A DNA stretch of 11,703 bases from Candidatus Bipolaricaulia bacterium (GTDB taxonomy: Bacteria; Bipolaricaulota; Bipolaricaulia; JBHIAT01): the NCBI GenBank assembly GCA_046758705.1, contig JBHIAT010000121.1:1-11703 (forward strand). Reading direction: 5' to 3'. Positions 2,510 through 11,703 of the stretch are shown one piece after another. Below the pieces are notes generated by a model, which was given only the letters and a program-made list of their open reading frames with translations, did not search any database and was not told where the DNA came from. Numbering within the stretch: position 1 is the first letter of the stretch; each line of letters starts with the position of its first letter. The translations under genes were made by a program, and so were the position numbers.

Positions 2510-5440
2510 ATGGGGCAGACTCAGATGGATGACTTCGGACTCAGAGTGAAACTCTTGGGGCACTTTGAGATCTGGCGTGGCCATGAACTCATCCCTCCTC
2601 AAGCCTGGCCCCAACGCAAGACCCAAACCCTCCTCAAAATCCTCCTCACCGAACGTGGCCGCGTCTTCACCCAAGACCAACTCATCGATGCCTTGTTCCC
2701 CGACCTCGATTTAGATAAGGCCGCTCGGAGCTTGCGCGGACGGATCAGCGAATTGCGCCGCACCTTGGAACCAGATCTCAAACGGGGTCCTGACTCTCAG
2801 TTTGTCCTGCGCGTCGGGGGAGGCTACTGCTTCAGCGAGAATGCCCCATGCTGGATTGACGTCGAAGAATTTCACCAGTCCATGGAGTCCGCACGGGAGT
2901 TGGAACAGGCGGAACTGTGGTCGCAAGCCCTGGAACAGTACCAACAGACCGTCGAGCTGTATCGCGGTGATTATCTGGCCGAAGATCTCTATGAGGAGTG
3001 GTCGATTCCTCCCCGAGAGCGCTGGCGTGAACTGTATCTGAACGCCCTGGGACGGTTGGCGGAGTGTTACGCACGCCTGAGAAACTATCCTCGGGCGATC
3101 GAGTATTGCCAACGAATGATCGAGTTGGATCCCTACCGCGAGGCAGGCTATCGCCAGCAGATGCTTTATCACTCCTATGCAGGCGAGCGGAGGAAAGCCC
3201 TACAGGTCTATGAAACGTGTGTCAAGGTCCTCAAAGACGAGCTGGATGCGAAGCCCGCGCCGGAGACCTATGAGCTTTATCAGCAGATACGCAACGGCGA
3301 AGTTCCTGAACTCCCCCGAGCCATTCCGAACAACCTGCCCATCCCGTTGACCCGTTTCATTGGACGCGAGAAGGAACTGAACGCTGTGCAGAAACACCTG
3401 TTGGACGAAGACGTGCGTCTGTTGACTCTTACAGGTGTGGGTGGCACAGGCAAGACCCGCTTGGGGCTCCAGGTGGCAGCGGACCTGATCGCTCACTTCG
3501 AGGATGGCGCTTACTTTATGAACCTGGCCCCCATCAGCGACCCTGGGCTGGTGGTCTCCACCATCGCCCAGACGTTGGGGATCAAGGAAACCGGAGGCCA
3601 ATCGCTGTTCGACAGCCTGAAGGAGTCCCTGCGCGACAGACAGATATTGCTATTGCTCGACAACTTCGAGCCAGTTGTGGCTGCGGCACCCCAAGTGGTA
3701 GGGTTGTTGGAAGCCTACCCTCGGTTGAAGCTGCTGGTGACCAGCCGGGAGCCCTGTCACGTGAGCGGGGAGCACGTGTTCCCAGTGCCGCCGCTGACGC
3801 TGCCTAAATCTGACCTCAAACCCCCGCCGCCTATCGAGCACCTGGTGCAGTATGAAGCGGTCCGCCTGTTCATCGAGCGGGCGCTGGCGGTGAAGCTCGA
3901 CTTTGCGGTCACCCGCGAGAGTGCCCCAGCGATCGCCGAAATCTGCATCCGCCTGGATGGATTGCCGCTGGCGATCGAGCTGGCTGCCGCCCGGATCACG
4001 TTGCTCTCACCACAGGCGATACTAGAGCGACTCGGGAGTCGTCTCGAGCTGCTAACGGGAGGGGCGCGGGACCTGCCAGCCCGCCAACAGACGCTGCGGG
4101 ACACGATCGACTGGAGCTACGATCTGCTGGATGCTGGTGAGAAGACGTTGTTTGAGCGGCTATCAGTATTTGTCGGAGGCTGCACATTAGAGGCGGCAGA
4201 GGCCGTGTGTAGCGGGGTAGACGACCTGGAACAGGAGATGGACATATTGGACGGGTTGGCCTCACTGGTGGATAAGAACCTTTTGCGCCAGGAGGAGCGG
4301 GCGGAGGGAGAACCTCGGTTTCTGATGCTGGAGACGATCCGGGAGTATGGGCTGGAGCGTCTGGAAGCGAGCGGGAAGACAGAAGCGGAGGCAATCCGAT
4401 GCACGCACGCCGACTACTACCTTGATCTGGCTGAAGCAGCGGAGCCGAGGATAGGTTGGTGGGGTGGTCCGGAGCAAGGGATATGGTTGAATTGGCTGGA
4501 GGTGGAGCACGACAACCTACGAGCGGCACTGGCGCACTTTGAGCAGATCGGAGAGGTGGAGGCAGGGTTGCGGTTGGGTGGAGCGCTGAGGTCGTTCTGG
4601 TTCTTGCGCGGTTCTCCGAGCGAGGGGCGAAGGTGGCTGGAAGGGGCGCTGAAACAGGGCGGCAGTGTGTCGGCACCCGTGCGGGCGAAGGCGCTCTTGG
4701 GGGCAGGCTGGCTGGCGTGGCGTCAGAGCGACTACGAGCAAGCAACCGCGCTGCTTGAGGAGAGCCTGGCCTTATTCCAGGAACTGGGGGACAAGGAGGG
4801 CATCGCGGGCTCGCTCAACAGATTGGGATTAGTAGCGTGCTCTGAGGGCGACTTGGGGCGAGCAGCAGCACTCTGCGAGGAGGCGCTGACCCTGTACCGG
4901 GAACTGGGAGACAAGCTGGGCATCGCAGACTCGATCCTCTACCTGGGGCATGTAGCGCAATATCAGGACGACTTGGGGCGAGCGACAGCACTCTATGAGG
5001 AGAGCCTGGTCCTGTGTCGGGGGCTGGAGAACAAGCAGGGCATCGCGCTCTCGCTCTTTCACCTGGGGAATGTGGCAGTTGGGCAGGGCGACTTGGGACG
5101 AGCGGTGGCACTCTACGAGGAGAGCCTGATCCTGCGGCAGGAAATAGGGGACAAGGGGGGTATTGCCTTATGTCTGGAGGGCTTGGCGGGGGTAGCCTGT
5201 GCAAACGGGCAACCCGAGCAGGCAGCGCGGCTATTTGGAGCGGCGGAGGCCCTGCGCGAAGCCATCGGCTTTCCCTTGATGCCTCCCGACCGCACCCTGC
5301 TGGACTATGATCGCAACGTGGCCGCCGTTCGTGCTGAACTGAGCGAAGACGCGTTTGAAGCGGCGTGGACCGAGGGACGAGCGATGACGCTGGAGCAGGC
5401 CATCGCATACGCGTTAGAGGAGGCCGCGCAGAAGCGTTGA
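2510..5440 (+). CDS. AfsR/SARP-type STAND transcriptional regulator (wHTH + BTAD + NB-ARC-like ATPase + TPR)
   Basis: RBS GAGGAGG; N-terminal LLGHFEI..LLKILL wHTH; BTAD (IDVEEF, LYRGDYL, DPYRE); FIGREKEL; Walker A GVGGTGKT; Walker B LLLLDNFE; GLPLAIELAAAR; C-terminal TPRs. Confidence 0.95.
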   Translation: MGQTQMDDFGLRVKLLGHFEIWRGHELIPPQAWPQRKTQTLLKILLTERGRVFTQDQLIDALFPDLDLDKAARSLRGRISELRRTLEPDLKRGPDSQFVLRVGGGYCFSENAPCWIDVEEFHQSMESARELEQAELWSQALEQYQQTVELYRGDYLAEDLYEEWSIPPRERWRELYLNALGRLAECYARLRNYPRAIEYCQRMIELDPYREAGYRQQMLYHSYAGERRKALQVYETCVKVLKDELDAKPAPETYELYQQIRNGEVPELPRAIPNNLPIPLTRFIGREKELNAVQKHLLDEDVRLLTLTGVGGTGKTRLGLQVAADLIAHFEDGAYFMNLAPISDPGLVVSTIAQTLGIKETGGQSLFDSLKESLRDRQILLLLDNFEPVVAAAPQVVGLLEAYPRLKLLVTSREPCHVSGEHVFPVPPLTLPKSDLKPPPPIEHLVQYEAVRLFIERALAVKLDFAVTRESAPAIAEICIRLDGLPLAIELAAARITLLSPQAILERLGSRLELLTGGARDLPARQQTLRDTIDWSYDLLDAGEKTLFERLSVFVGGCTLEAAEAVCSGVDDLEQEMDILDGLASLVDKNLLRQEERAEGEPRFLMLETIREYGLERLEASGKTEAEAIRCTHADYYLDLAEAAEPRIGWWGGPEQGIWLNWLEVEHDNLRAALAHFEQIGEVEAGLRLGGALRSFWFLRGSPSEGRRWLEGALKQGGSVSAPVRAKALLGAGWLAWRQSDYEQATALLEESLALFQELGDKEGIAGSLNRLGLVACSEGDLGRAAALCEEALTLYRELGDKLGIADSILYLGHVAQYQDDLGRATALYEESLVLCRGLENKQGIALSLFHLGNVAVGQGDLGRAVALYEESLILRQEIGDKGGIALCLEGLAGVACANGQPEQAARLFGAAEALREAIGFPLMPPDRTLLDYDRNVAAVRAELSEDAFEAAWTEGRAMTLEQAIAYALEEAAQKR
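4730..5170 (+). repeat. 120-bp (40-aa) tandem TPR-coding repeats
   Basis: GACTTGGG[G/A]CGAGC at 4850, 4970 and 5090; GACAAG/AACAAG..GGCATCGC recurs with a 120-bp period. Confidence 0.85.
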
Positions 5441-5677
5441 CAAATCTGGCGCGGCCGAACGTCAAATAATCGGAGATCTTTGACATTCACTCCTTGAATC
5501 TACCAACCCATCTTGTCTTTTCTCTGGATTGCTTGTCCGTGCTATCTATTCCATCATCCCAAGTCTCTGCCCTCTAAAGCAGAGACCCCTCCTTGTCCTG
5601 AGAGGCTAAGCACTCGGTTTGAGCCGTTTTAGCTGTCTCTAGAACGAGATTGTCCAGAATACTGAATTCGAAGCGTG

Positions 5678-6145
5678 CTACCTTAATAACTCCTGTAGGG
5701 ACTGAACTGGAGAACGATAGCCGTGACTGATCATAACGGCTAAAAACCGGTCGGCTTCCTCCAGGGTTAGATGCTCCTCATCAACAAGAGCCAGTAAGAC
5801 ACCCAGCGTTCCGGAAACGGTGATCTTGCGCTGACGGGCCAAACGTCGGGCAGCGAAATCGTCGGAGAGAATCTTGCTCTGCCGCATCTGCGCCACAGCC
5901 AAGCACTCTGCTTCCCCAGGATCCAGCTGTTGCTTCAGCTCATCAGCCAGGCGCTGCTCTTCGTCAGTGAGCTCCAGGATCTGAAGCCAGCTCCAGTCAC
6001 AAGGGGGGACGAGCCCCAGATCCTCTCCTGTGCGTAACTCTTCCATGACGGTCGGGACCGTTGCCGCATTTTCTTCCAATGTCAGTTGTAAAAGATCCGG
6101 CCGCCGGATGTGAGCGAAGTTGCTCAGAAGTGTCGTATCCACCAA
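5678..6145 (-). CDS. DUF3368-like PIN-domain toxin
   Basis: VDTTLLSNF, VPTVMEEL, LDPGEAECLAVA, ILSDDFAARRLA, GTLGVL motifs; start uncertain (TTG 6145 or GTG 6142). Confidence 0.88.
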   Translation of the reverse strand: MVDTTLLSNFAHIRRPDLLQLTLEENAATVPTVMEELRTGEDLGLVPPCDWSWLQILELTDEEQRLADELKQQLDPGEAECLAVAQMRQSKILSDDFAARRLARQRKITVSGTLGVLLALVDEEHLTLEEADRFLAVMISHGYRSPVQSLQELLR

Positions 6146-6174
6146 AGCGAGAGGGGCTCACCAATCTCAGATCG

Positions 6175-6630
6175 TCACCGAAGTGCCTCAAATTCAGCTC
6201 TGGCTTCCTCAATACTGGTTGGACCGAGCTGGAGAGGGATGCCCAGGCGATTAAATCGCTCCACCAGCTCAAATCGGGACAGATCCAACAATTGTGCCGC
6301 CCTCCCCAAACTGATGTCTCCATCCAGATAGACGGCCATCACGCGGTTCCAGGCTGCCTGTTCATCGCCGCTGGCGTCCCTAATCGCCTGCTTCACTTCT
6401 TCCTCTTTCAGTCCTCGGGGCGAGATGGTTTCGTCGCGAATCGGAGCTGGCTGGGGGGGCGTGGCGCGATAGGTGGCCACGGCTCGCAGAAGCCGGTAGT
6501 CGAGGATATCCATGATGGCGACCTGCGCTTCTCCATAACTTTCCACAATGACGGTGTGGCCCCGTCGGACGAGGTCGACGATCTGACGCGTGCGGCGGGC
6601 GAGATCGGTCTTGTTGATGTTCGTGGCCAT
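6175..6630 (-). CDS. Antitoxin: Phd-like N-terminus fused to UPF0175-like C-terminus, 151 aa
   Basis: ATG 6630 after AGAGGAG; INKTDLARRTRQIVDLVRRGHTVIVESYGEAQVAIM (Phd-like) and YLDGDISLGRAAQLLDLSRFELVERFNRLGIP (UPF0175-like). Confidence 0.82.
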   Translation of the reverse strand: MATNINKTDLARRTRQIVDLVRRGHTVIVESYGEAQVAIMDILDYRLLRAVATYRATPPQPAPIRDETISPRGLKEEEVKQAIRDASGDEQAAWNRVMAVYLDGDISLGRAAQLLDLSRFELVERFNRLGIPLQLGPTSIEEARAEFEALR

Positions 6631-6665
6631 GGACTTACATCTCCTCTTCTTTAAGAATTGCACAC

Positions 6666-6701
6666 TCTATGTATTCTATGTATCATCGACCTAAGTGTCA
6701 A
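6666..6701 (-). promoter_or_regulatory. Sigma70 promoter of the TA operon with tandem operator repeat
   Basis: Minus strand TTGACA (6701-6696), 17 bp, TAGAAT (6678-6673); TCTATGTAT tandem at 6666-6674 and 6675-6683 overlaps the -10. Confidence 0.8.
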
Positions 6702-6770
6702 ACAAAGCAGAATGAGGGCATTCCGTTTGCACAGGCTGTCAGATAGCCCGATCGACTTGCCCTAAACCTC

Positions 6771-6813
6771 TTGACAAATACTCCTATTTATGATATACTA
6801 TTATTAATAGGAG
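6771..6813 (+). promoter_or_regulatory. Near-consensus sigma70 promoter with flanking inverted repeat
   Basis: TTGACA (6771-6776), 17 bp, extended TG-n-TATACT (6794-6799); CTCCTATT (6781-6788) / AATAGGAG (6806-6813) inverted repeat. Confidence 0.85.
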
Positions 6814-6822
6814 GTGATCGGG

Positions 6823-7347
6823 ATGAAAACATCCCCAAAAAGCAGAACCCCGGCGGGACGGCCGGCAAGCACAAATCCCACCGAGGCCAGCAGCCAACAA
6901 GTTGGCCAGGTCCAGTCTATCAGTGACGGCCGCGGCAGTCAAGTTGAGCTCGAGGAGCTGCAGCGCCAGCTCAAGGCAGCCGAGGAAGAAGCCGCCCATT
7001 ATAAGGCCGAGTGGAAGGCTACCCGGCTTGAGGCTGACGAGCTGCACGGTGACGTCCGGGAGTACCGCGACACGCTATTAGAGGCCCGGGAACGGATCAA
7101 GGAATTCAGACAACAGGTCCCCCAGCTGGAGGCGGAGCGTGACACACTGGCCGAAGCGATGGTCGGTGAGTGCAGTCGCTGTGGTGCAGAGATCGATCTA
7201 TCTGATGCTGTCCGTTGGGCTGATGGGACGATTGCAGTCGGGACGGACGGGGAGAGCCTGTCAAGGTCGGGGAGATTGAGTATGAGCGATTTGGACATTC
7301 TGTTGGATGAGATGGCGGGATGGTATCAAGCGCGGGAGGTAGCCTAA
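6823..7347 (+). CDS. Hypothetical coiled-coil protein with a single CxxC
   Basis: ATG 6823 after AGGAGGTGA; heptad-rich ELEELQRQLKAAEEE...QLEAERDTL; CSRC. Confidence 0.75.
   Translation: MKTSPKSRTPAGRPASTNPTEASSQQVGQVQSISDGRGSQVELEELQRQLKAAEEEAAHYKAEWKATRLEADELHGDVREYRDTLLEARERIKEFRQQVPQLEAERDTLAEAMVGECSRCGAEIDLSDAVRWADGTIAVGTDGESLSRSGRLSMSDLDILLDEMAGWYQAREVA
6837..6907 (-). ncRNA. Putative ~70-nt antisense RNA inside the 5' end of ORF 6823
   Basis: Minus-strand promoter just upstream; hairpin GGCCAAC-UU-GUUGGCU; 13-bp stem GCCUCGGUGGGAU/GUCCCGCCGGGGU whose G-U pairs form only on the minus strand; then UCUGCUUUUU. Confidence 0.65.
6914..6942 (-). promoter_or_regulatory. Antisense sigma70 promoter
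   Basis: TTGACT (6942-6937), 17 bp, extended TG-a-TAGACT (6919-6914). Confidence 0.7.
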
Positions 7348-7348
7348 G

Positions 7349-7740
7349 ATGGGGAGCGGCGATATTCGCGACGTGTTCGGTGACGTGATTTTCCGATACC
7401 CCCGCGCAGAGGCCATCAGGGACGGGGTCTTGATTGACGTGACAGAGACCGCCCAGGAGATGGGTATGCGCTATCCCGTGGCCTTGACTGCTGACGCTTG
7501 GACCCAGCGGTCAAGGTCGAACCCAAGGATGAAGGTTTGCAGGATGAAGCCGGGCGGTTGTGGGACGTGTTATGGATGTTTCGGGCATATGTTGGGCAGG
7601 TCAAGGATCAACCGGAAGTCCGGTTCCCTGTGCTCGTATGGTCGCAGGGACGGCAACGGGAAGTGACCTTGAAAGGGACCATAGGCTCCGGGGATGATGG
7701 GGAGCCTGTCATAACGATTATGCTCCCTTTTGAGGATTAA
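7349..7740 (+). pseudogene. DUF6573-like MGE protein, split by a 1-nt frameshift near 7500-7510
   Basis: First frame FGDVIFRYPRAEAIRDGVLIDVTETAQEMGMRYPVALTADAW continues in another frame as QDEAGRLWDVLWM...LKGTIGSGDDGEPVITIMLPFED; span is 392 nt (3n+2). Confidence 0.8.
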
Positions 7741-7809
7741 ATGAACCGGCTCGGAAGGGTCGCCGAGTCACCAGCTATAACAATCTTATTGAAGGGAGGA
7801 ACGGGACTG

Positions 7810-8070
7810 ATGGCTGGTAAGGTAAAAGCATATAGACCGGAAGGGCGGGAGCTCCATCCACTGCTCCGAAGCCTAGAGGACTTCAGAGCACGCCGGGGAA
7901 TCTCTCAAAAGCGGATGGCTAAAAAGATTGGGGTTGCCTATTCAACCTATCAGCGCTGGTTATACGTAGAAGATGCTCAGGCCTGGAACCCCGGCTTAAA
8001 AACGGTCGAACGAATTGAGGAGGTCCTGGAGACGGAGGGAGAGGGGGAGGCAGGCCAGGGGAGGGGATAA
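7810..8070 (+). CDS. XRE/Cro-family HTH regulator, 86 aa
   Basis: ATG 7810 after GGGAGGA; LEDFRARRGISQKRMAKKIGVAYSTYQRWL...P..KTVERIEEVL. Confidence 0.88.
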   Translation: MAGKVKAYRPEGRELHPLLRSLEDFRARRGISQKRMAKKIGVAYSTYQRWLYVEDAQAWNPGLKTVERIEEVLETEGEGEAGQGRG

Positions 8071-8108
8071 GCCAAAAAAGGCGAGGCCGACCGGGGCGGT
8101 GATCGGCA

Positions 8109-8557
8109 CTGCACACGATCGACGACCTGACCAAAAGATACGGGATGAGCGCTCGGTCTATCCGGCGGCGTGTGGACATGTTGGCACCGGAGATCGATCC
8201 CTATGTAGGGACCGGAAAGCCTAAGCTGTACACGGATAGAGCTATAAAGATGCTGGATCGCCTGGAGGAGCTGAATAGCGCCGGATTGAGCCTAATTGAC
8301 GCCGCTGAGAAGGTGAAAGACGAAGAGATAGACCAGAAGGCTGATCGGATGACTGAGTTCCTAACGGGCAGTCCTGCTATCTGGCCAGATAGCGCTGAGG
8401 TGCGTCCAAACCGCGCCGATCCGAGCACCGACACCGGTTGACCGAGCAGCGGCTCGCCCGGATCGAGGACAGGGATCGGGAGATCGAGCAGCTTCACGAC
8501 CTGCTCAACCGCCAGCTCCCGGGCCTGGTGGTCCTAATGGTGGTGACGGTTGTTTAA
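8109..8557 (+). pseudogene. MerR-like HTH + coiled-coil protein, apparently disrupted
   Basis: From CTG 8109 (after GGCGGTGA): LHTIDDLTKRYGMSARSIRRRV...KLYTDRAIKMLDRLEELNSAGLSL, stop at 8441; coiled coil RLTEQRLARIEDRDREIEQLHDLLNRQLPG in a second frame (8435-8557); WWS*WW*RLF remnant shifted back out of that frame. Confidence 0.6.
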
Positions 8558-8592
8558 GTACGAACAGGGGGGAAAGGGGGTAGATCCGCATC

Positions 8593-9459
8593 ATGGTCAT
8601 CCAGCTGATCCTCGGCTTCTTGCTCAGCCTCGTGGTGGCGGCAATCATTTTTATTGAGAGGATCCTCTACGCGACTTGGCTCCGATCGCGCCAAGGGAAA
8701 ACCAGCCTGTGTACGACCTGCGGCCATGTCGGCAAACCGAACCGCCAGTATAGGCTTTGGCGGCAGATGACAAAACAGGACGTTTGTCCCCACTGTCATA
8801 ACCCGACACTGACACTGATCCCGATCAATCGTTACCAGCACATCCTGCCCACGAGCGCAGATACATTCGTCCGGTGGTTAACGGATTACATCCAAAAGAT
8901 AGGCCCACACTTGCATCCAGGCGATGTGAGATTGGACGGCATCTGGGAGATACCGAACCCAGAGTGGGGACCTGATCTCGATCTGACTCAACCAGCTGAA
9001 CTCAACGTGATAGGTGCCTACGAAAAACGCATCAAGCGAATCCTTCGGTCATCCGAGCCTGTGCTCGTGAAGGAACCCGACAAGTTCATCACCTTCTGGC
9101 TACGGCCGCTTGACGCCGAGCGGGTTGAAGTGAACGCCTGGTGTAGGGAGCCTGCGGTCCTGCCTGTCTTCCAAGACCTGGTGGAAGAGATCGAGCAACG
9201 CTGGCCGGCTGAGGAGAAAGTGAGCCCATCAGAAGAGCAATCTACAGAGGATAAACCGTGGAAGAAGATACCCGATCTTCGTCAGGATCGCAAGCTGGTG
9301 AAACTTTGGCACGATGGTCTTCCGATGAAAAAGATAGGGAAAAAGCTGGGGATGAGCCCCAAGACCGTTCGAAATCGCCTGAGCGAGTTGCGCAAGATCT
9401 ACGGGGAGGAGATCGTCCCCTACCGGCAAGTGGAGCATGAGGATGAGGAGTCAGAATAA
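8593..9459 (+). CDS. Membrane-anchored Zn-ribbon protein with C-terminal HTH (LuxR/sigma-4-like)
   Basis: Hydrophobic N-terminus MVIQLILGFLLSLVVAAIIFI; CTTC...CPHC; DRKLVKLWHDGLPMKKIGKKLGMSPKTVRNRLSELR. Confidence 0.78.
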   Translation: MVIQLILGFLLSLVVAAIIFIERILYATWLRSRQGKTSLCTTCGHVGKPNRQYRLWRQMTKQDVCPHCHNPTLTLIPINRYQHILPTSADTFVRWLTDYIQKIGPHLHPGDVRLDGIWEIPNPEWGPDLDLTQPAELNVIGAYEKRIKRILRSSEPVLVKEPDKFITFWLRPLDAERVEVNAWCREPAVLPVFQDLVEEIEQRWPAEEKVSPSEEQSTEDKPWKKIPDLRQDRKLVKLWHDGLPMKKIGKKLGMSPKTVRNRLSELRKIYGEEIVPYRQVEHEDEESE

Positions 9460-9744
9460 CCGTGGGGACACTCTACCAACCGACAGCGCTCGAGTCGGGT
9501 TGGTCCCTGGCCCTGGTCGGGGAACTGTTCAGGTAGCAACCGATCGGCTCGGCTGGTTGCCGTGTCATGCGCGCCGCGATTTTAGGCGGATGATGACGCG
9601 AAAGAGGGGGTCTCCAAGGTAAAAATTTGGTAAAAATGGCGGAAATTGTTCCGGTCATCTGCGATAAACGGGCGATAAGCGGTTTTAGGGTTTTCTCAGC
9701 GTGTAAAAACGGGAGAACCCAGTCCTGATGGGGATTTCATGGAT

Positions 9745-9764
9745 GGCTTAAACCGGTTTAAGCC
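9745..9764. repeat. Perfect 20-bp palindrome GGCTTAAACCGGTTTAAGCC
   Basis: Exact self-reverse-complement read directly from the sequence. Confidence 0.9.
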
Positions 9765-9843
9765 CCAGCTTCCCCAAGGGCCGAAAAATCCCTTTGTAAG
9801 AATATGAAGGTAAGCCAAATGGGATGAGCGATCCAGCGATATT

Positions 9844-9896
9844 TTGGGACATCGTTTGGGACATTTTTTGGGACATCTTGGGACATCTTGGAGCAT
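9844..9896 (+). repeat. Iteron-like direct repeats TTGGGACAT x4 plus degenerate TTGGAGCAT
   Basis: Copies start at 9844, 9856, 9868, 9878 and 9888 (periods 12, 12, 10, 10). Confidence 0.9.
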
Positions 9897-9905
9897 GTCA
9901 AAGTA

Positions 9906-9934
9906 TAGACTTCAGGCAACTTCCATGCGATAAT
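9906..9934 (+). promoter_or_regulatory. Putative rep promoter
   Basis: TAGACT (9906-9911), 17 bp, extended TG-c-GATAAT (9929-9934); imperfect inverted repeat GACTTCAGGCAA (9908-9919) / TTGACCTGCAAGTC (9934-9947). Confidence 0.6.
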
Positions 9935-9954
9935 TGACCTGCAAGTCGGTCTGA

Positions 9955-10031
9955 TAAAAAGGACACAGGCCGGGACTCGGACACTTAGGGGGCGCCGAGA
10001 ACCGGCCCGGTCGTAAGTAGACTAACTAGCA
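9955..10031 (-). ncRNA. Putative counter-transcribed RNA (ctRNA) controlling rep
   Basis: Minus-strand promoter at 10038-10066; stem GGCCGG-UU-CUCGG [loop CGCCCCCUAAGUGU] CCGAG-UC-CCGGCC extended by GAC/GUC, then CUUUUUAU. Confidence 0.75.
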
Positions 10032-10037
10032 CCCTCA

Positions 10038-10066
10038 ATTTTAACCTACCTTGCGACCAAATGCAA
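10038..10066 (-). promoter_or_regulatory. ctRNA sigma70 promoter
   Basis: TTGCAT (10066-10061), 17 bp, TAAAAT (10043-10038). Confidence 0.75.
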
Positions 10067-10094
10067 CTATAACTCTAGGCCCCCTTGAGGGCGT

Positions 10095-10208
10095 ATGCTT
10101 GGTCCATATCTCCGGTATAGCGTAGCTTTAAGCTATTGGCCTGGCTGCGAAGCTGAGGTCGTCCTGACCCGGGAGATTGAGGTCCTGGAGACGGGGGTGG
10201 TCTCATGA
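10095..10208 (+). CDS. Putative 37-aa rep leader peptide
   Basis: GAGG then ATG 10095: MLGPYLRYSVALSYWPGCEAEVVLTREIEVLETGVVS*; its TGA overlaps the rep ATG (ATGA 10205-10208). Confidence 0.5.
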   Translation: MLGPYLRYSVALSYWPGCEAEVVLTREIEVLETGVVS

Positions 10209-11703
10209 TCCCCACCCAGGACTTCCTCGCCGATGTGCTCAACCTGTCCGATCCCAACGTGGACCCCTATTCCAAGCGCAACCCTCGACGGTTCGTCTTC
10301 TTCTACAAGTTGTCCACGCCGTATGAACACCGGGAGCTCCAGCGCAGCTACATCGACTACCAGGACCTCAACAGGGCCTTTGATCATCCTGAGATGGAAA
10401 TCTACTTCTGTCCCAACCTGTTCTGGAAACCCCGAACCCGACGAAAACAGGAACTATCCTACCTGAACGCTCTGGTCCTGGATTTGGATCTGGACCTGGA
10501 AGATCCCGACCACGAGTACTGGATCGAGACGATCATTGACCGGTGTCATGAGCTGGGGATCCCTGAACCCCACTACATTGTCTTCTCCGGCACAGGCTAC
10601 CACGTCTACTGGCTGATCGACCCGATCCGGGTGTTTCGAGATGACCTCAAGCCCGGCGGTCGGATCCCGTTCTATGAGGACGTGCTCAAAAAGCTGCAGC
10701 GGATGTTTGAGGACCTGGGGGCCGATCCAGGGTCAACCGATGCGGTTCATGTGTTCCGGGTACCGGGCACATTAAACCATGCTGAAGAGACAGGTGAGGG
10801 GATCTTTACCTTTGTCAATAACAGGGTTGAGATCGTCCACAGGCGGGATGGCGAACGGGTGTGGCTGTCAGGGATAGCTGAGCAGCTTGGAGGTCAACAG
10901 GGTCACCCTCAGAGCACAGTGAGGGTAAAAGTGGACCGCGAGGGGCGGGATGATCCGATCGATCAAACCGAGTTCATCCGGAACCTCGAGCCGAACACGG
11001 GCACGTCCGGCAACGACGGCATGCTGTCGGCGGCCATCATCGGGTACCGGATCCAGGGACTCGCTGGCGATGATCTTATCGCCTACCTGAACGCCCTGAA
11101 CCGGGCTGTCCCATCAGAGGCAAGGGTCAACCAATCGAGAATCGAACACGTCGCCCGGGCGGTTGAGTATTACGGCTACGGGTTCAGTCCCCAGCGGGCG
11201 CATGAGGTCACCGGGCTGCCCCTGGAGGCCTGTCGCGAAATCCTCCAGTTTGTCGAACGTCTGGAGGTGGAACGTGTTTGGAGCGAACCTAAATACATGG
11301 CACCGGAAGAGTTCAACCTGAGAGTGCTGCGAGCGCTGGTGAAGCTGGGGGGATATAAGCAACCGGTGGCGTTGCCGATGTCCGACCTGGCCGAGTCCGC
11401 CGGCGTGAGCTATTCGACCCTCAGAAAGCGTGTCGGCCGCGGAAATATCCCCTTCATCCACCGCGGCAAGCTGCACGCCACCGATCAGACCACCACCAAC
11501 AGAAACATTTCCCTATGGTGGACGTCTCTTTCCCTGTTCCTAAGCCAGCTGTCCAAATTCATTATAGGGAGCGTGTGGTTTTGGTGGGTGAATCGATTTG
11601 TGGGGGGTGAGGAGGTGGTGTTTGAGGAGTTGAGAGTAGATCCTTCCTCTCGATCACCGCCAGCGGTGTCTTCTGAGGGTGTTGAAGGGCGAGATCTGAG
11701 AAA
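10205..11703 (+). CDS. AEP-superfamily primase-type replication initiator (Rep), 3'-partial, >=499 aa
   Basis: Manually translated, open to the window end: motif I ALVLDLDLD, motif II VFSGTGYHVYW, motif III TDAVHVFRVPGTLN; helical PriCT-like region; HTH MSDLAESAGVSYSTLRKRV; RBS GGGGGTG. Confidence 0.9.
   Translation, partial: MIPTQDFLADVLNLSDPNVDPYSKRNPRRFVFFYKLSTPYEHRELQRSYIDYQDLNRAFDHPEMEIYFCPNLFWKPRTRRKQELSYLNALVLDLDLDLEDPDHEYWIETIIDRCHELGIPEPHYIVFSGTGYHVYWLIDPIRVFRDDLKPGGRIPFYEDVLKKLQRMFEDLGADPGSTDAVHVFRVPGTLNHAEETGEGIFTFVNNRVEIVHRRDGERVWLSGIAEQLGGQQGHPQSTVRVKVDREGRDDPIDQTEFIRNLEPNTGTSGNDGMLSAAIIGYRIQGLAGDDLIAYLNALNRAVPSEARVNQSRIEHVARAVEYYGYGFSPQRAHEVTGLPLEACREILQFVERLEVERVWSEPKYMAPEEFNLRVLRALVKLGGYKQPVALPMSDLAESAGVSYSTLRKRVGRGNIPFIHRGKLHATDQTTTNRNISLWWTSLSLFLSQLSKFIIGSVWFWWVNRFVGGEEVVFEELRVDPSSRSPPAVSSEGVEGRDLR

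Follow-up and report, generated by a model that had tools for sequence, protein, structure and literature searches.

The 11,703-nt stretch of DNA analysed here (the window) is the whole of contig JBHIAT010000121.1 (C121) from a Candidatus Bipolaricaulia bacterium, and its last 1.9 kb are best explained as a module for replication and copy control in a plasmid-like element. The module centers on rep, a gene for a primase-type replication initiator (Rep), whose ribosome-binding site (RBS) is buried in an RNA hairpin of a stability unseen at the sampled ordinary genes of the organism. This RBS lock is statistically outstanding and is the strongest single result of our analysis. Upstream of rep, a short leader open reading frame (ORF; hereafter uORF) runs into the rep start codon and may be coupled to it, and a second stable hairpin near the 5' end of the leader could serve a small countertranscript. 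Whether these parts work together in full, with an antisense RNA lowering the leader-ORF translation that is needed to open the rep RBS, is in our judgement an even call.

A stable predicted hairpin covers the rep ribosome-binding site

The rep ORF (10205..11701, plus strand) is open at the contig end (11703), and its ATG at 10205 is the first possible start in frame. The Shine-Dalgarno (SD) sequence GGGGGTGGTC precedes it at 10193..10202 on the plus strand. The 3' end of the genome's own 16S rRNA is GGATCACCTCCTTTCT, which confirms the anti-SD CCUCC, and with this tail the rep SD can pair at 10 of 10 positions, with 8 Watson-Crick and 2 G-U pairs. The SD core lies 7 nt before the ATG, an ideal spacing.

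In the favored fold of the mRNA, this strong site is paired. The RBS-locking hairpin (~10170-10232, plus strand) joins GGUCCUGG with CCAGGACU and GGGGGUGG with CCCCACC, the latter formed by rep codons 2-4, and places the AUG near the apical loop. Folding of 10170-10235 gives -34.3 kcal/mol (z -2.8), with 1 of 200 shuffles as stable, and the structure accounts for 40% of the ensemble; the unpaired probability of the rep SD is 0.16. For comparison, 500 SD-bearing starts of long ORFs were sampled from the genome in the same 66-nt window (mean -13.4, standard deviation 4.9, minimum -33.7). The rep start is more stable than every one of them, and among 500 random 66-nt windows 0.2% match its stability. 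We consider it very probable that this hairpin is regulatory. Since it lies beyond all 500 sampled starts, the lock is also strong enough to serve as a clean test case for translational coupling.

An earlier note on this DNA had placed the rep SD elsewhere, in the loop of a GAGAC/GTCTC stem. The motif is present at 10188-10204, where it flanks GGGGGTG, but the small hairpin that it can form has little stability (-6.9 kcal/mol, z -1.44; 20 of 200 shuffles do as well), and in the favored -34.3 kcal/mol fold the SD is paired rather than looped.

A leader ORF ends on the rep start codon

The uORF comprises 37 codons (114 nt; 10095..10208, plus strand), and its TGA overlaps the rep ATG in the sequence ATGA, as the earlier note had recognized. 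Since the uORF contains the 5' arm of the locking hairpin and has its stop codon on the rep AUG, a ribosome that terminates there would unfold the lock at the point of re-initiation. The uORF's own SD, GAGG (10087..10090, plus strand), is weak and lies 4 nt before the uORF ATG.

In 5000 dinucleotide shuffles of the leader with the ATGA held fixed, an ATG-initiated ORF of at least 37 codons ending at this site arises in 2.4%, and one with any start codon in 5.9%. The codon-usage log-odds of the uORF (0.209) exceeds that of 38% of real 37-codon gene segments (mean 0.236); it is reached by 8.4% of open off-frame segments (mean -0.10), and other nearby small ORFs score between -0.12 and -0.36. The G+C content of third codon positions does not discriminate between the frames. 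On these grounds an ATGA-coupled uORF is moderately supported, and we lean towards its being coupled to rep.

A 5' hairpin with a minus-strand terminator signature

Closer to the 5' end of the leader, a strong hairpin spans 9962..10012, with core arms at 9968-9980 and 9995-10007 and the apical loop UUAGGGG in the sense RNA. The segment 9960-10015 folds at -28.3 kcal/mol (z -3.48), with 0 of 200 shuffles as stable, and the hairpin is also retained on the minus strand (z -3.12 over 91 nt). On that strand it is followed by UGUCCUUUUUA, and the plus strand has no T-run after it. We propose a double role for this hairpin, as antisense target on the rep mRNA and as terminator stem of a countertranscript. 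The putative countertranscript, of ~79 nt, would run on the minus strand from ~10031 to the T-run TGTCCTTTTTA at ~9965-9953, where the sequence is terminator-like on this strand only.

The earlier note had already called an antisense terminator here. In a simple consensus scan neither this terminator nor an antisense promoter is called, but a test that asks for at least 5 T in 8 nt, with a hairpin in the 45 nt immediately before, does find the terminator, on the minus strand only, with a free energy (dG) of -28 over the 45 nt before the T-run at ~9965-9953. Across the genome, terminator-like sites with dG <= -24 occur at a rate of 0.015 per kb per strand; they are found downstream of long ORFs in 20 of 1014 cases, on the antisense strand of these in 9 of 1014 and inside genes in 1 of 1014. 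At a loose threshold of -12 there is nearly no enrichment (10.3% vs 7.8%), which limits the test. The list of ORFs contains no minus-strand gene upstream that could use the terminator, because Rep occupies the plus strand, and its simplest use can reasonably be taken to be the ending of the ~79-nt countertranscript. A strand-specific terminator is thus moderately supported. For the antisense RNA itself, going by the sequence, we find existence and absence about equally credible.

A different use of the leader, transcription attenuation of the pT181/pIP501 type, was considered and rejected: the sole plus-strand terminator-like site in 9900-10260, at 10035, belongs to a loose class (-14.2 kcal/mol) that shows no enrichment after genes.

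Rep as an AEP-type initiator

Rep is almost certainly an initiator of the archaeo-eukaryotic primase (AEP) type. The order of domains given in the earlier note, AEP, PriCT and helix-turn-helix (HTH), agrees with the motifs, with the fold and with the domains of relatives. The AEP primase domain covers residues ~60-230, a PriCT-like helical region ~269-360 and the HTH ~385-420. The protein would end 6 codons past the window, in a second contig (C209), at ~505 aa in total, if the join between C121 and C209 is real.

Rep carries the DxD (motif I) and GxGxH (motif II) signatures of AEP enzymes, and a third acidic residue in GAD...R.PG. In an alignment of 7 sequences (A2), D93, L94, D95, G129, G131, H133, G172, D174 and R185 are invariant; in one of 20 sequences (A1), D93, D95, G131, W136, G172, D174 and R185 are. 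A1 is too diverse for locus finding, and A2 was used instead. The AlphaFold2 model of Rep has a pLDDT of 68.6 overall and mostly 76-97 in the N-terminal domain. In fact, all 3 Foldseek matches to this model at E<=0.001 are AEP primases (6zp9_A at 5.6e-7, 3h20 and 3h25).

Profile searches with Rep itself give less. HTH_10 (E 0.076) is the sole Pfam family at E<=0.1, and the PHROG primase matches are weak (E 3e-7 to 8e-4). Among ten Rep relatives compared with Pfam, RepB_primase is found in 6 at E<=0.01 (1 above the curated cut-off), PriCT_1 in 4 at E<=0.01 (2 above the curated cut-off) and Prim-Pol in 2, and C-terminal HTH domains occur in several. Similarly, the nearest Atlas clusters to Rep are ~500-aa PriCT_1 or RepB-primase proteins, the top ones being 97-99% PriCT_1. 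PriCT_1 (PF08708) has no direct match in Rep; the middle region of Rep aligns with the PriCT_1-bearing relatives, and it is this alignment that supports a PriCT-like part.

We note a Trp-rich hydrophobic helix (WWTSLSLFLSQLSKFIIGSVWFWWVNRF) after the HTH, at Rep residues ~433-465 (window ~11500-11600), where model confidence is low. A comparable W/R-rich segment is present in the relatives that can be aligned over their full length (P0002, P0005, P0009 and P0014). The helix could serve oligomerisation or membrane contact.

Relatives of Rep are distant. An exhaustive search of 1.84 billion representatives returns 704 matches at E<=1e-3 and 23 at <=1e-10, with Rep itself alone at <=1e-30; all 704 are partial, with no full-length relative, and among the 150 matches listed 6 align to the C-terminal half (~256-438) and the rest to residues ~20-245. 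Scans of genome and metagenome contigs give 28 and 80 loci (108 fetched) in which only the AEP core is aligned, the 16 of similar size among them included, and a scan of viral_contigs finds no relative of Rep. Some distant relatives are annotated replication genes near position 1 of complete plasmids (Acidithiobacillus, Clostridiaceae). A Clostridiaceae plasmid relative (CP026603.1, ~470-507) lacks an overlapping uORF, and a 17-bp hairpin just upstream of the start codon takes up its rep SD, AGGAGGG; sequestration of the SD may be common in the wider Rep group even without coupling.

Proposed control of rep and its weighing

From these features we infer two transcripts that would meet in the rep leader, and we propose that control proceeds as follows: (I) rep would be transcribed from ~9941, behind four iteron-like repeats, the predicted start of a candidate sense promoter with an extended TG (TAGACT-17-GATAAT; 9906..9934, plus strand); (II) with the strong SD and the AUG buried in the -34 kcal/mol hairpin, free ribosomes would be unable to start; (III) a ribosome on the 37-codon uORF would pass the 5' arm of the hairpin, halt at the UGA that overlaps the rep AUG and thereby open the site, and rep would be translated via coupling or re-initiation, whereby Rep output would track uORF translation; and (IV) the ~79-nt countertranscript, transcribed across the 5' leader in the opposite direction and terminating at the 9968-10007 hairpin with its U-run, would pair with the leader, and uORF and rep expression would fall in step with rising copy number, in the manner of R1 (CopA/tap/repA) and of the REx-C module. 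A candidate antisense promoter (TTGCAT-17-TAAAAT) lies at 10066..10038 on the minus strand.

A series of results weighs against this scheme, beginning with the link between its two halves. We modeled the switch as unpaired probabilities over the leader 9941-10260, free and with 9953-10031 held as bound. The rep SD stays paired in both states (0.16), and the uORF SD changes from 0.19 to 0.26. The antisense target ends ~55 nt before the uORF RBS, and the model gives no route by which antisense binding would be transmitted to that RBS. The antisense-driven structural switch that had been suggested for this leader is therefore not reproduced by thermodynamic modelling. Moreover, the uORF SD is weak, having a core of 4 nt at a spacing of 4 nt, and the model leaves it largely base-paired (unpaired 0.19).

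The transcripts are no firmer. The sense promoter named in the earlier note is present at 9906-9934 and, at 9/12, is the sole site called in 9600-10500, but shuffles expect 0.8 sites; by itself it is at chance level, and it is backed by position rather than statistics. The antisense promoter can likewise be read in the sequence, but it scores 8/12 only, below the scan threshold, and its class occurs at 2.9 sites per kb in the genome, again chance level. On these counts both promoters are not supported. No RNA runs holding 9500-11703 are listed. Three metagenome DNA runs hold the region; they come from one study and are identical over 5388-11703 except for one letter in one record, and therefore carry no covariation signal.

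Comparisons with other genomes and proteins fall on the same side. The curated AEP models (RepB_primase, Prim-Pol, Replicase) give no Pfam match to Rep itself, and no NCBIfam model matches it. A word-indexed search of 5.8 billion protein clusters finds Rep and one 28%-identity match only, and a relative of Rep is present in 0 of 183 other genomes of the phylum. The leader fares no better: blastn of 9600-10300 against 72,556 plasmid records and of 9830-10215 against phages gives no match, and the phylum search with the leader yields chance-level 20-30-nt matches only (E 0.003-0.008 per genome). Among the 16 size-matched relatives, a short ORF overlaps the first candidate start in 2, or in 6 with alternative starts, and there is no shared pattern. 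Finally, partition, relaxase and integrase genes are all absent from what is seen of C121 and C209, and for this reason plasmid status itself is something that we infer. Rep and its leader being without near relatives, the replicon is undescribed at the level of sequence.

Repeats upstream of rep and possible control by Rep itself

Four direct repeats, TTGGGACAT(C/T), lie at 9844..9887 on the plus strand (region 9839-9899), spaced 12, 12 and 10 nt, with a degenerate fifth reaching ~9899. They stop 19 nt short of the sense promoter's -35 hexamer. At <=1 mismatch the 4 matches to TTGGGACAT all fall in this cluster; a count of 4 across the whole window is reached in 1 of 200 shuffles, and outside the cluster the exact core is absent from C121, C209 and a third contig, C172. 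By sequence these repeats are iteron-like and are candidate binding sites for Rep or its HTH; they may mark the origin, a Rep operator or both.

The repeats give rise to the main rival explanation, in which the hairpin throttles rep without a switch and copy number is set by Rep acting on the TTGGGACAT repeats through handcuffing or autorepression. The uORF would then be fortuitous and no antisense RNA would exist; the role of the 9968-10007 hairpin would be to stabilise the rep mRNA at its 5' end, or to act in the DNA as part of the origin, for example as a primase-loading hairpin like ssiA/ssiB, which RepB' of RSF1010 uses. We regard this as somewhat unlikely, with much that speaks for it. 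The iteron-like repeats abut the -35 hexamer, and the order of elements is origin-like, with repeats, an AT-richer stretch at 9900-9960 (GC 0.40-0.45) and a GC-rich hairpin. Rep's AEP domain has RepB' and a PrimPol as its nearest structural matches. The chance-level promoters and the lack of an antisense-dependent switch in the modelling also suit it, as does the Clostridiaceae plasmid relative, which hides its SD in a hairpin without a uORF. However, this explanation leaves aside that the 9968-10007 hairpin is a terminator on the minus strand only, of a strength that is rare and gene-end-enriched in this genome, and that the uORF stops precisely at the ATGA, uses codons much as real genes do and seldom arises in shuffled sequence. 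Furthermore, no DnaA box at <=2 mismatches is present in 9460-10204.

The spacer at 9460-9900 is repeat-dense in further ways, as is expected of an origin or partition site. The heptamer GCGATAA has 3 copies in the 745-nt intergenic region (9661-9682, 9927-9933), of 5 in the whole window; two stand in tandem (GCGATAAACGG, GCGATAAGCGG), and the remaining one shares bases with the -10 hexamer of the sense promoter. It could be an operator for an upstream HTH protein. A perfect 20-nt palindrome, GGCTTAAACCGGTTTAAGCC, lies at 9745-9764, and tandem GGTAAAAAT repeats lie at 9618-9637.

A possible long-range contact in the leader

A further explanation keeps the antisense RNA and adds an activator pseudoknot of the IncI/IncB style. 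Here, the 5' hairpin loop AGGGGGC (9987-9993) would pair with GCCCCCU (10079-10085) and open the uORF RBS; the antisense RNA, whose loop has the same GCCCCCU, would compete for the hairpin loop and so block leader and rep translation. The two segments form a perfect 7-nt complement that ends 2 nt before the uORF SD, the minimum free energy fold of the full leader pairs the G-run with the C-run, and the unpaired probability of GCCCCCU is 0.03. We also count in its favor the YUNR loop motif, which both the sense loop UUAG and the antisense loop CUAA fit. The mechanism has a precedent in IncI1/IncB, as summarised in the relevant part of PMC8053102. On the other side, 20% of shuffled leaders contain, at one place or another, a complement of at least 7 nt to the loop, and the site was chosen post hoc. 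Nor is there an Rfam match: cmscan of 9400-10500 at E<=10 returns only BcKCsr2 (E 1.7) and Magnesium-II (E 9.6), both chance-level and far below gathering scores. We hold this explanation to be quite improbable, and because of the shuffle frequency the AGGGGGC/GCCCCCU contact stays a lead only.

The same contact permits a bolder extension, namely an independently evolved, self-contained module for copy control on an unseen branch of AEP-primase initiators in a small, vent-associated phylum. In such a module, the loop AGGGGGC would be the shared target of the ~79-nt antisense RNA and of the activating GCCCCCU contact, and pseudoknot logic of the IncI/IncB type would have arisen anew, shifted one step upstream to the leader peptide and been joined with iterons. 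This, too, we would give little chance.

The element and its other genes

C121 belongs to a metagenome-assembled genome of 319 contigs and 3.7 Mb, and it fits this bin in GC content (0.567 vs 0.571) and in its tetranucleotide profile. Its last 55 nt overlap the end of C209, and through this join the element is at least 16 kb. At the far end of C209, the terminal 55-mer is common to the end of C172, a branch in the assembly graph; the start of C121 has no overlap with any other contig end. Read depth is uniform along C121, at ~12.

Near its start, C121 encodes a HEPN-domain protein (E 5e-19) adjoining a Phd/YefM-type antitoxin (E 1e-8), a toxin-antitoxin pair at 402-1147 on the minus strand. 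These are followed by a 976-aa BTAD/NB-ARC/TPR regulator (2510-5440), a DUF3368 protein (5678-6145) and, upstream of rep, XRE-type and HTH genes (7741-8070, 8593-9459); a HEAT-repeat protein is also encoded. C209 adds a PIN protein and further HTH or unknown proteins. The BTAD/NB-ARC/TPR regulator draws many diverged contigs of the same metagenomes, with a summed depth of up to ~100 vs ~12 elsewhere, which indicates a large paralogous or multi-organism family; the assembly break at 5388 follows from this.

The surroundings of rep bear on one more explanation, in which the leader has nothing to do with copy control. Rep would then serve, as primase or initiator, an element that is integrated or of satellite type, and induction-dependent expression would be the task of the structured leader, for example under the upstream XRE/HTH proteins. 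Many AEP relatives do lie in large chromosomal contigs (e.g. 0.77, 9.9 and 5.6 Mb), XRE-type and HTH genes are present upstream at the positions given above, read depth is even at ~12, and no partition or relaxase genes are seen on C121 or C209. Yet neither contig shows an integrase or an att site, the iteron-like repeats and the toxin-antitoxin genes suit a plasmid, and the layout agrees with plasmid control regions. We consider an integrated element a poor prospect. Read as a plasmid-like module, 9460-11703 together with a few codons from C209 makes up a candidate minimal replicon for a poorly studied lineage.

Comparison with known systems

The closest likeness in layout is to the REx-C module of Pseudomonas pPT23A-family (PFP) plasmids. 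As described by Bardaji et al. 2017 (PMC5304414) in the part of that paper devoted to it, REx-C has three stem-loops and a putative antisense RNA that is terminated by the first stem-loop and has its promoter in the third; a 123-nt leader gene "appears to be translationally coupled" to rep, and the RepA-PFP proteins encoded downstream carry primase, PriCT and HTH domains. There, both the antisense RNA and the leader peptide are themselves called "putative". The same features can be traced in p1448A-B (NC_007275), where we find a terminator-like hairpin at ~21-50, a rep SD inside a hairpin and a 40-codon ORF (185-307) whose TGA overlaps the rep ATG at 304 in ATGA; the NC_007275 Rep matches Pfam Replicase (PF03090, 1e-51) and PriCT_1.

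REx-C/RepA-PFP/RepJ replicons, so far as that account describes them, thus share with the present leader the order of parts: a 5' stem-loop that could end a putative antisense RNA, a promoter for that RNA farther inward, a ~40-codon ORF (123 nt in REx-C, 114 nt here) that is ATGA-coupled, and a rep SD in a hairpin. RepA-PFP and our Rep are also alike in having primase, PriCT and HTH regions. In sequence, however, the two are distinct. BLASTP between RepA-PFP and Rep gives E 0.1, and hhalign aligns 24 HTH columns only; the N-terminal domain of RepA-PFP is Replicase PF03090, whereas that of Rep is RepB_primase/PrimPol-like with no PF03090 match. According to PMC5304414, REx-C members share a conserved core of 175-194 nt, whereas our leader has no blastn match in the 72,556 plasmid records. 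PFP and ColE2 replicons are described without iterons, in contrast to the four direct repeats found here.

This comparison also corrects the view, held in the earlier note, that leader-peptide coupling is confined to Reps that are not primases: REx-C and RepA-PFP, as presented in PMC5304414, refute it. The claim of an undescribed replicon family stands in so far as Rep and leader have no near sequence relatives, but the control layout already exists in REx-C. Because REx-C joins a primase/PriCT/HTH Rep, a putative antisense RNA and an ATGA-coupled leader ORF, the combination as such has a precedent, and what is new, by our searches, is the sequence of Rep and leader.

In R1 (IncFII), the parts are the CopA antisense RNA, the tap leader peptide and repA (Blomberg et al. 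1992, as cited in PMC5304414 and PMC8053102). Together with IncI2 repR/repA, as outlined in PMC8053102, R1 resembles the scheme proposed here in having an antisense RNA against the rep leader and in that rep translation needs a short overlapping leader ORF. The Reps of R1 and IncI2, in contrast, are not primases, and no Rfam family is matched by our leader. A second difference from R1 is one of position: the CopA target adjoins the tap RBS, whereas the predicted target here ends ~55 nt before the uORF RBS.

IncI1/IncB (repY-repZ and repB-repA), in the summary given by PMC8053102, likewise have a rep-coupled leader ORF, and there as here a hairpin loop could contact the antisense RNA as well as a distant site close to an RBS. 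They differ from the present leader in that the possible pseudoknot here is a 7-nt complement with a 20% chance frequency, would act on the RBS of the leader ORF rather than on that of rep, and has no Rfam match.

In pSYSA of Synechocystis 6803, the passages of PMC9978351 on its replication describe a small ORF (ssr7036), asRNA1 and CyRepA1 (Slr7037). The likeness lies in a primase-type Rep that follows a small ORF and an abundant cis-antisense RNA affecting copy number, which is experimentally supported in pSYSA (PMC9978351). CyRepA1, in contrast, has 958 aa and a helicase domain, asRNA1 (~150 nt) covers the coding sequence of the small ORF, and the sense RNA is proposed to prime replication, a ColE1-like logic rather than translational coupling (all as given in PMC9978351).

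At the level of fold, Rep shares its AEP catalytic domain with RepB' of RSF1010 (3h20, 3h25) and with the PrimPol of cyanophage S-2L (6zp9), the target-normalised TM score to 6zp9_A being 0.74; the identity to Rep is 12-16% across these structures. RepB' is a dedicated primase that stands beside separate RepA and RepC proteins, rather than a single initiator with an HTH.

The present replicon opens no new question in plasmid biology. If the proposed scheme is true, it adds a sequence-unrelated example of control by antisense RNA and leader peptide on a primase-type initiator, and it would favor the view, derived from REx-C, that this control logic is portable and has been reached repeatedly by different Rep families.

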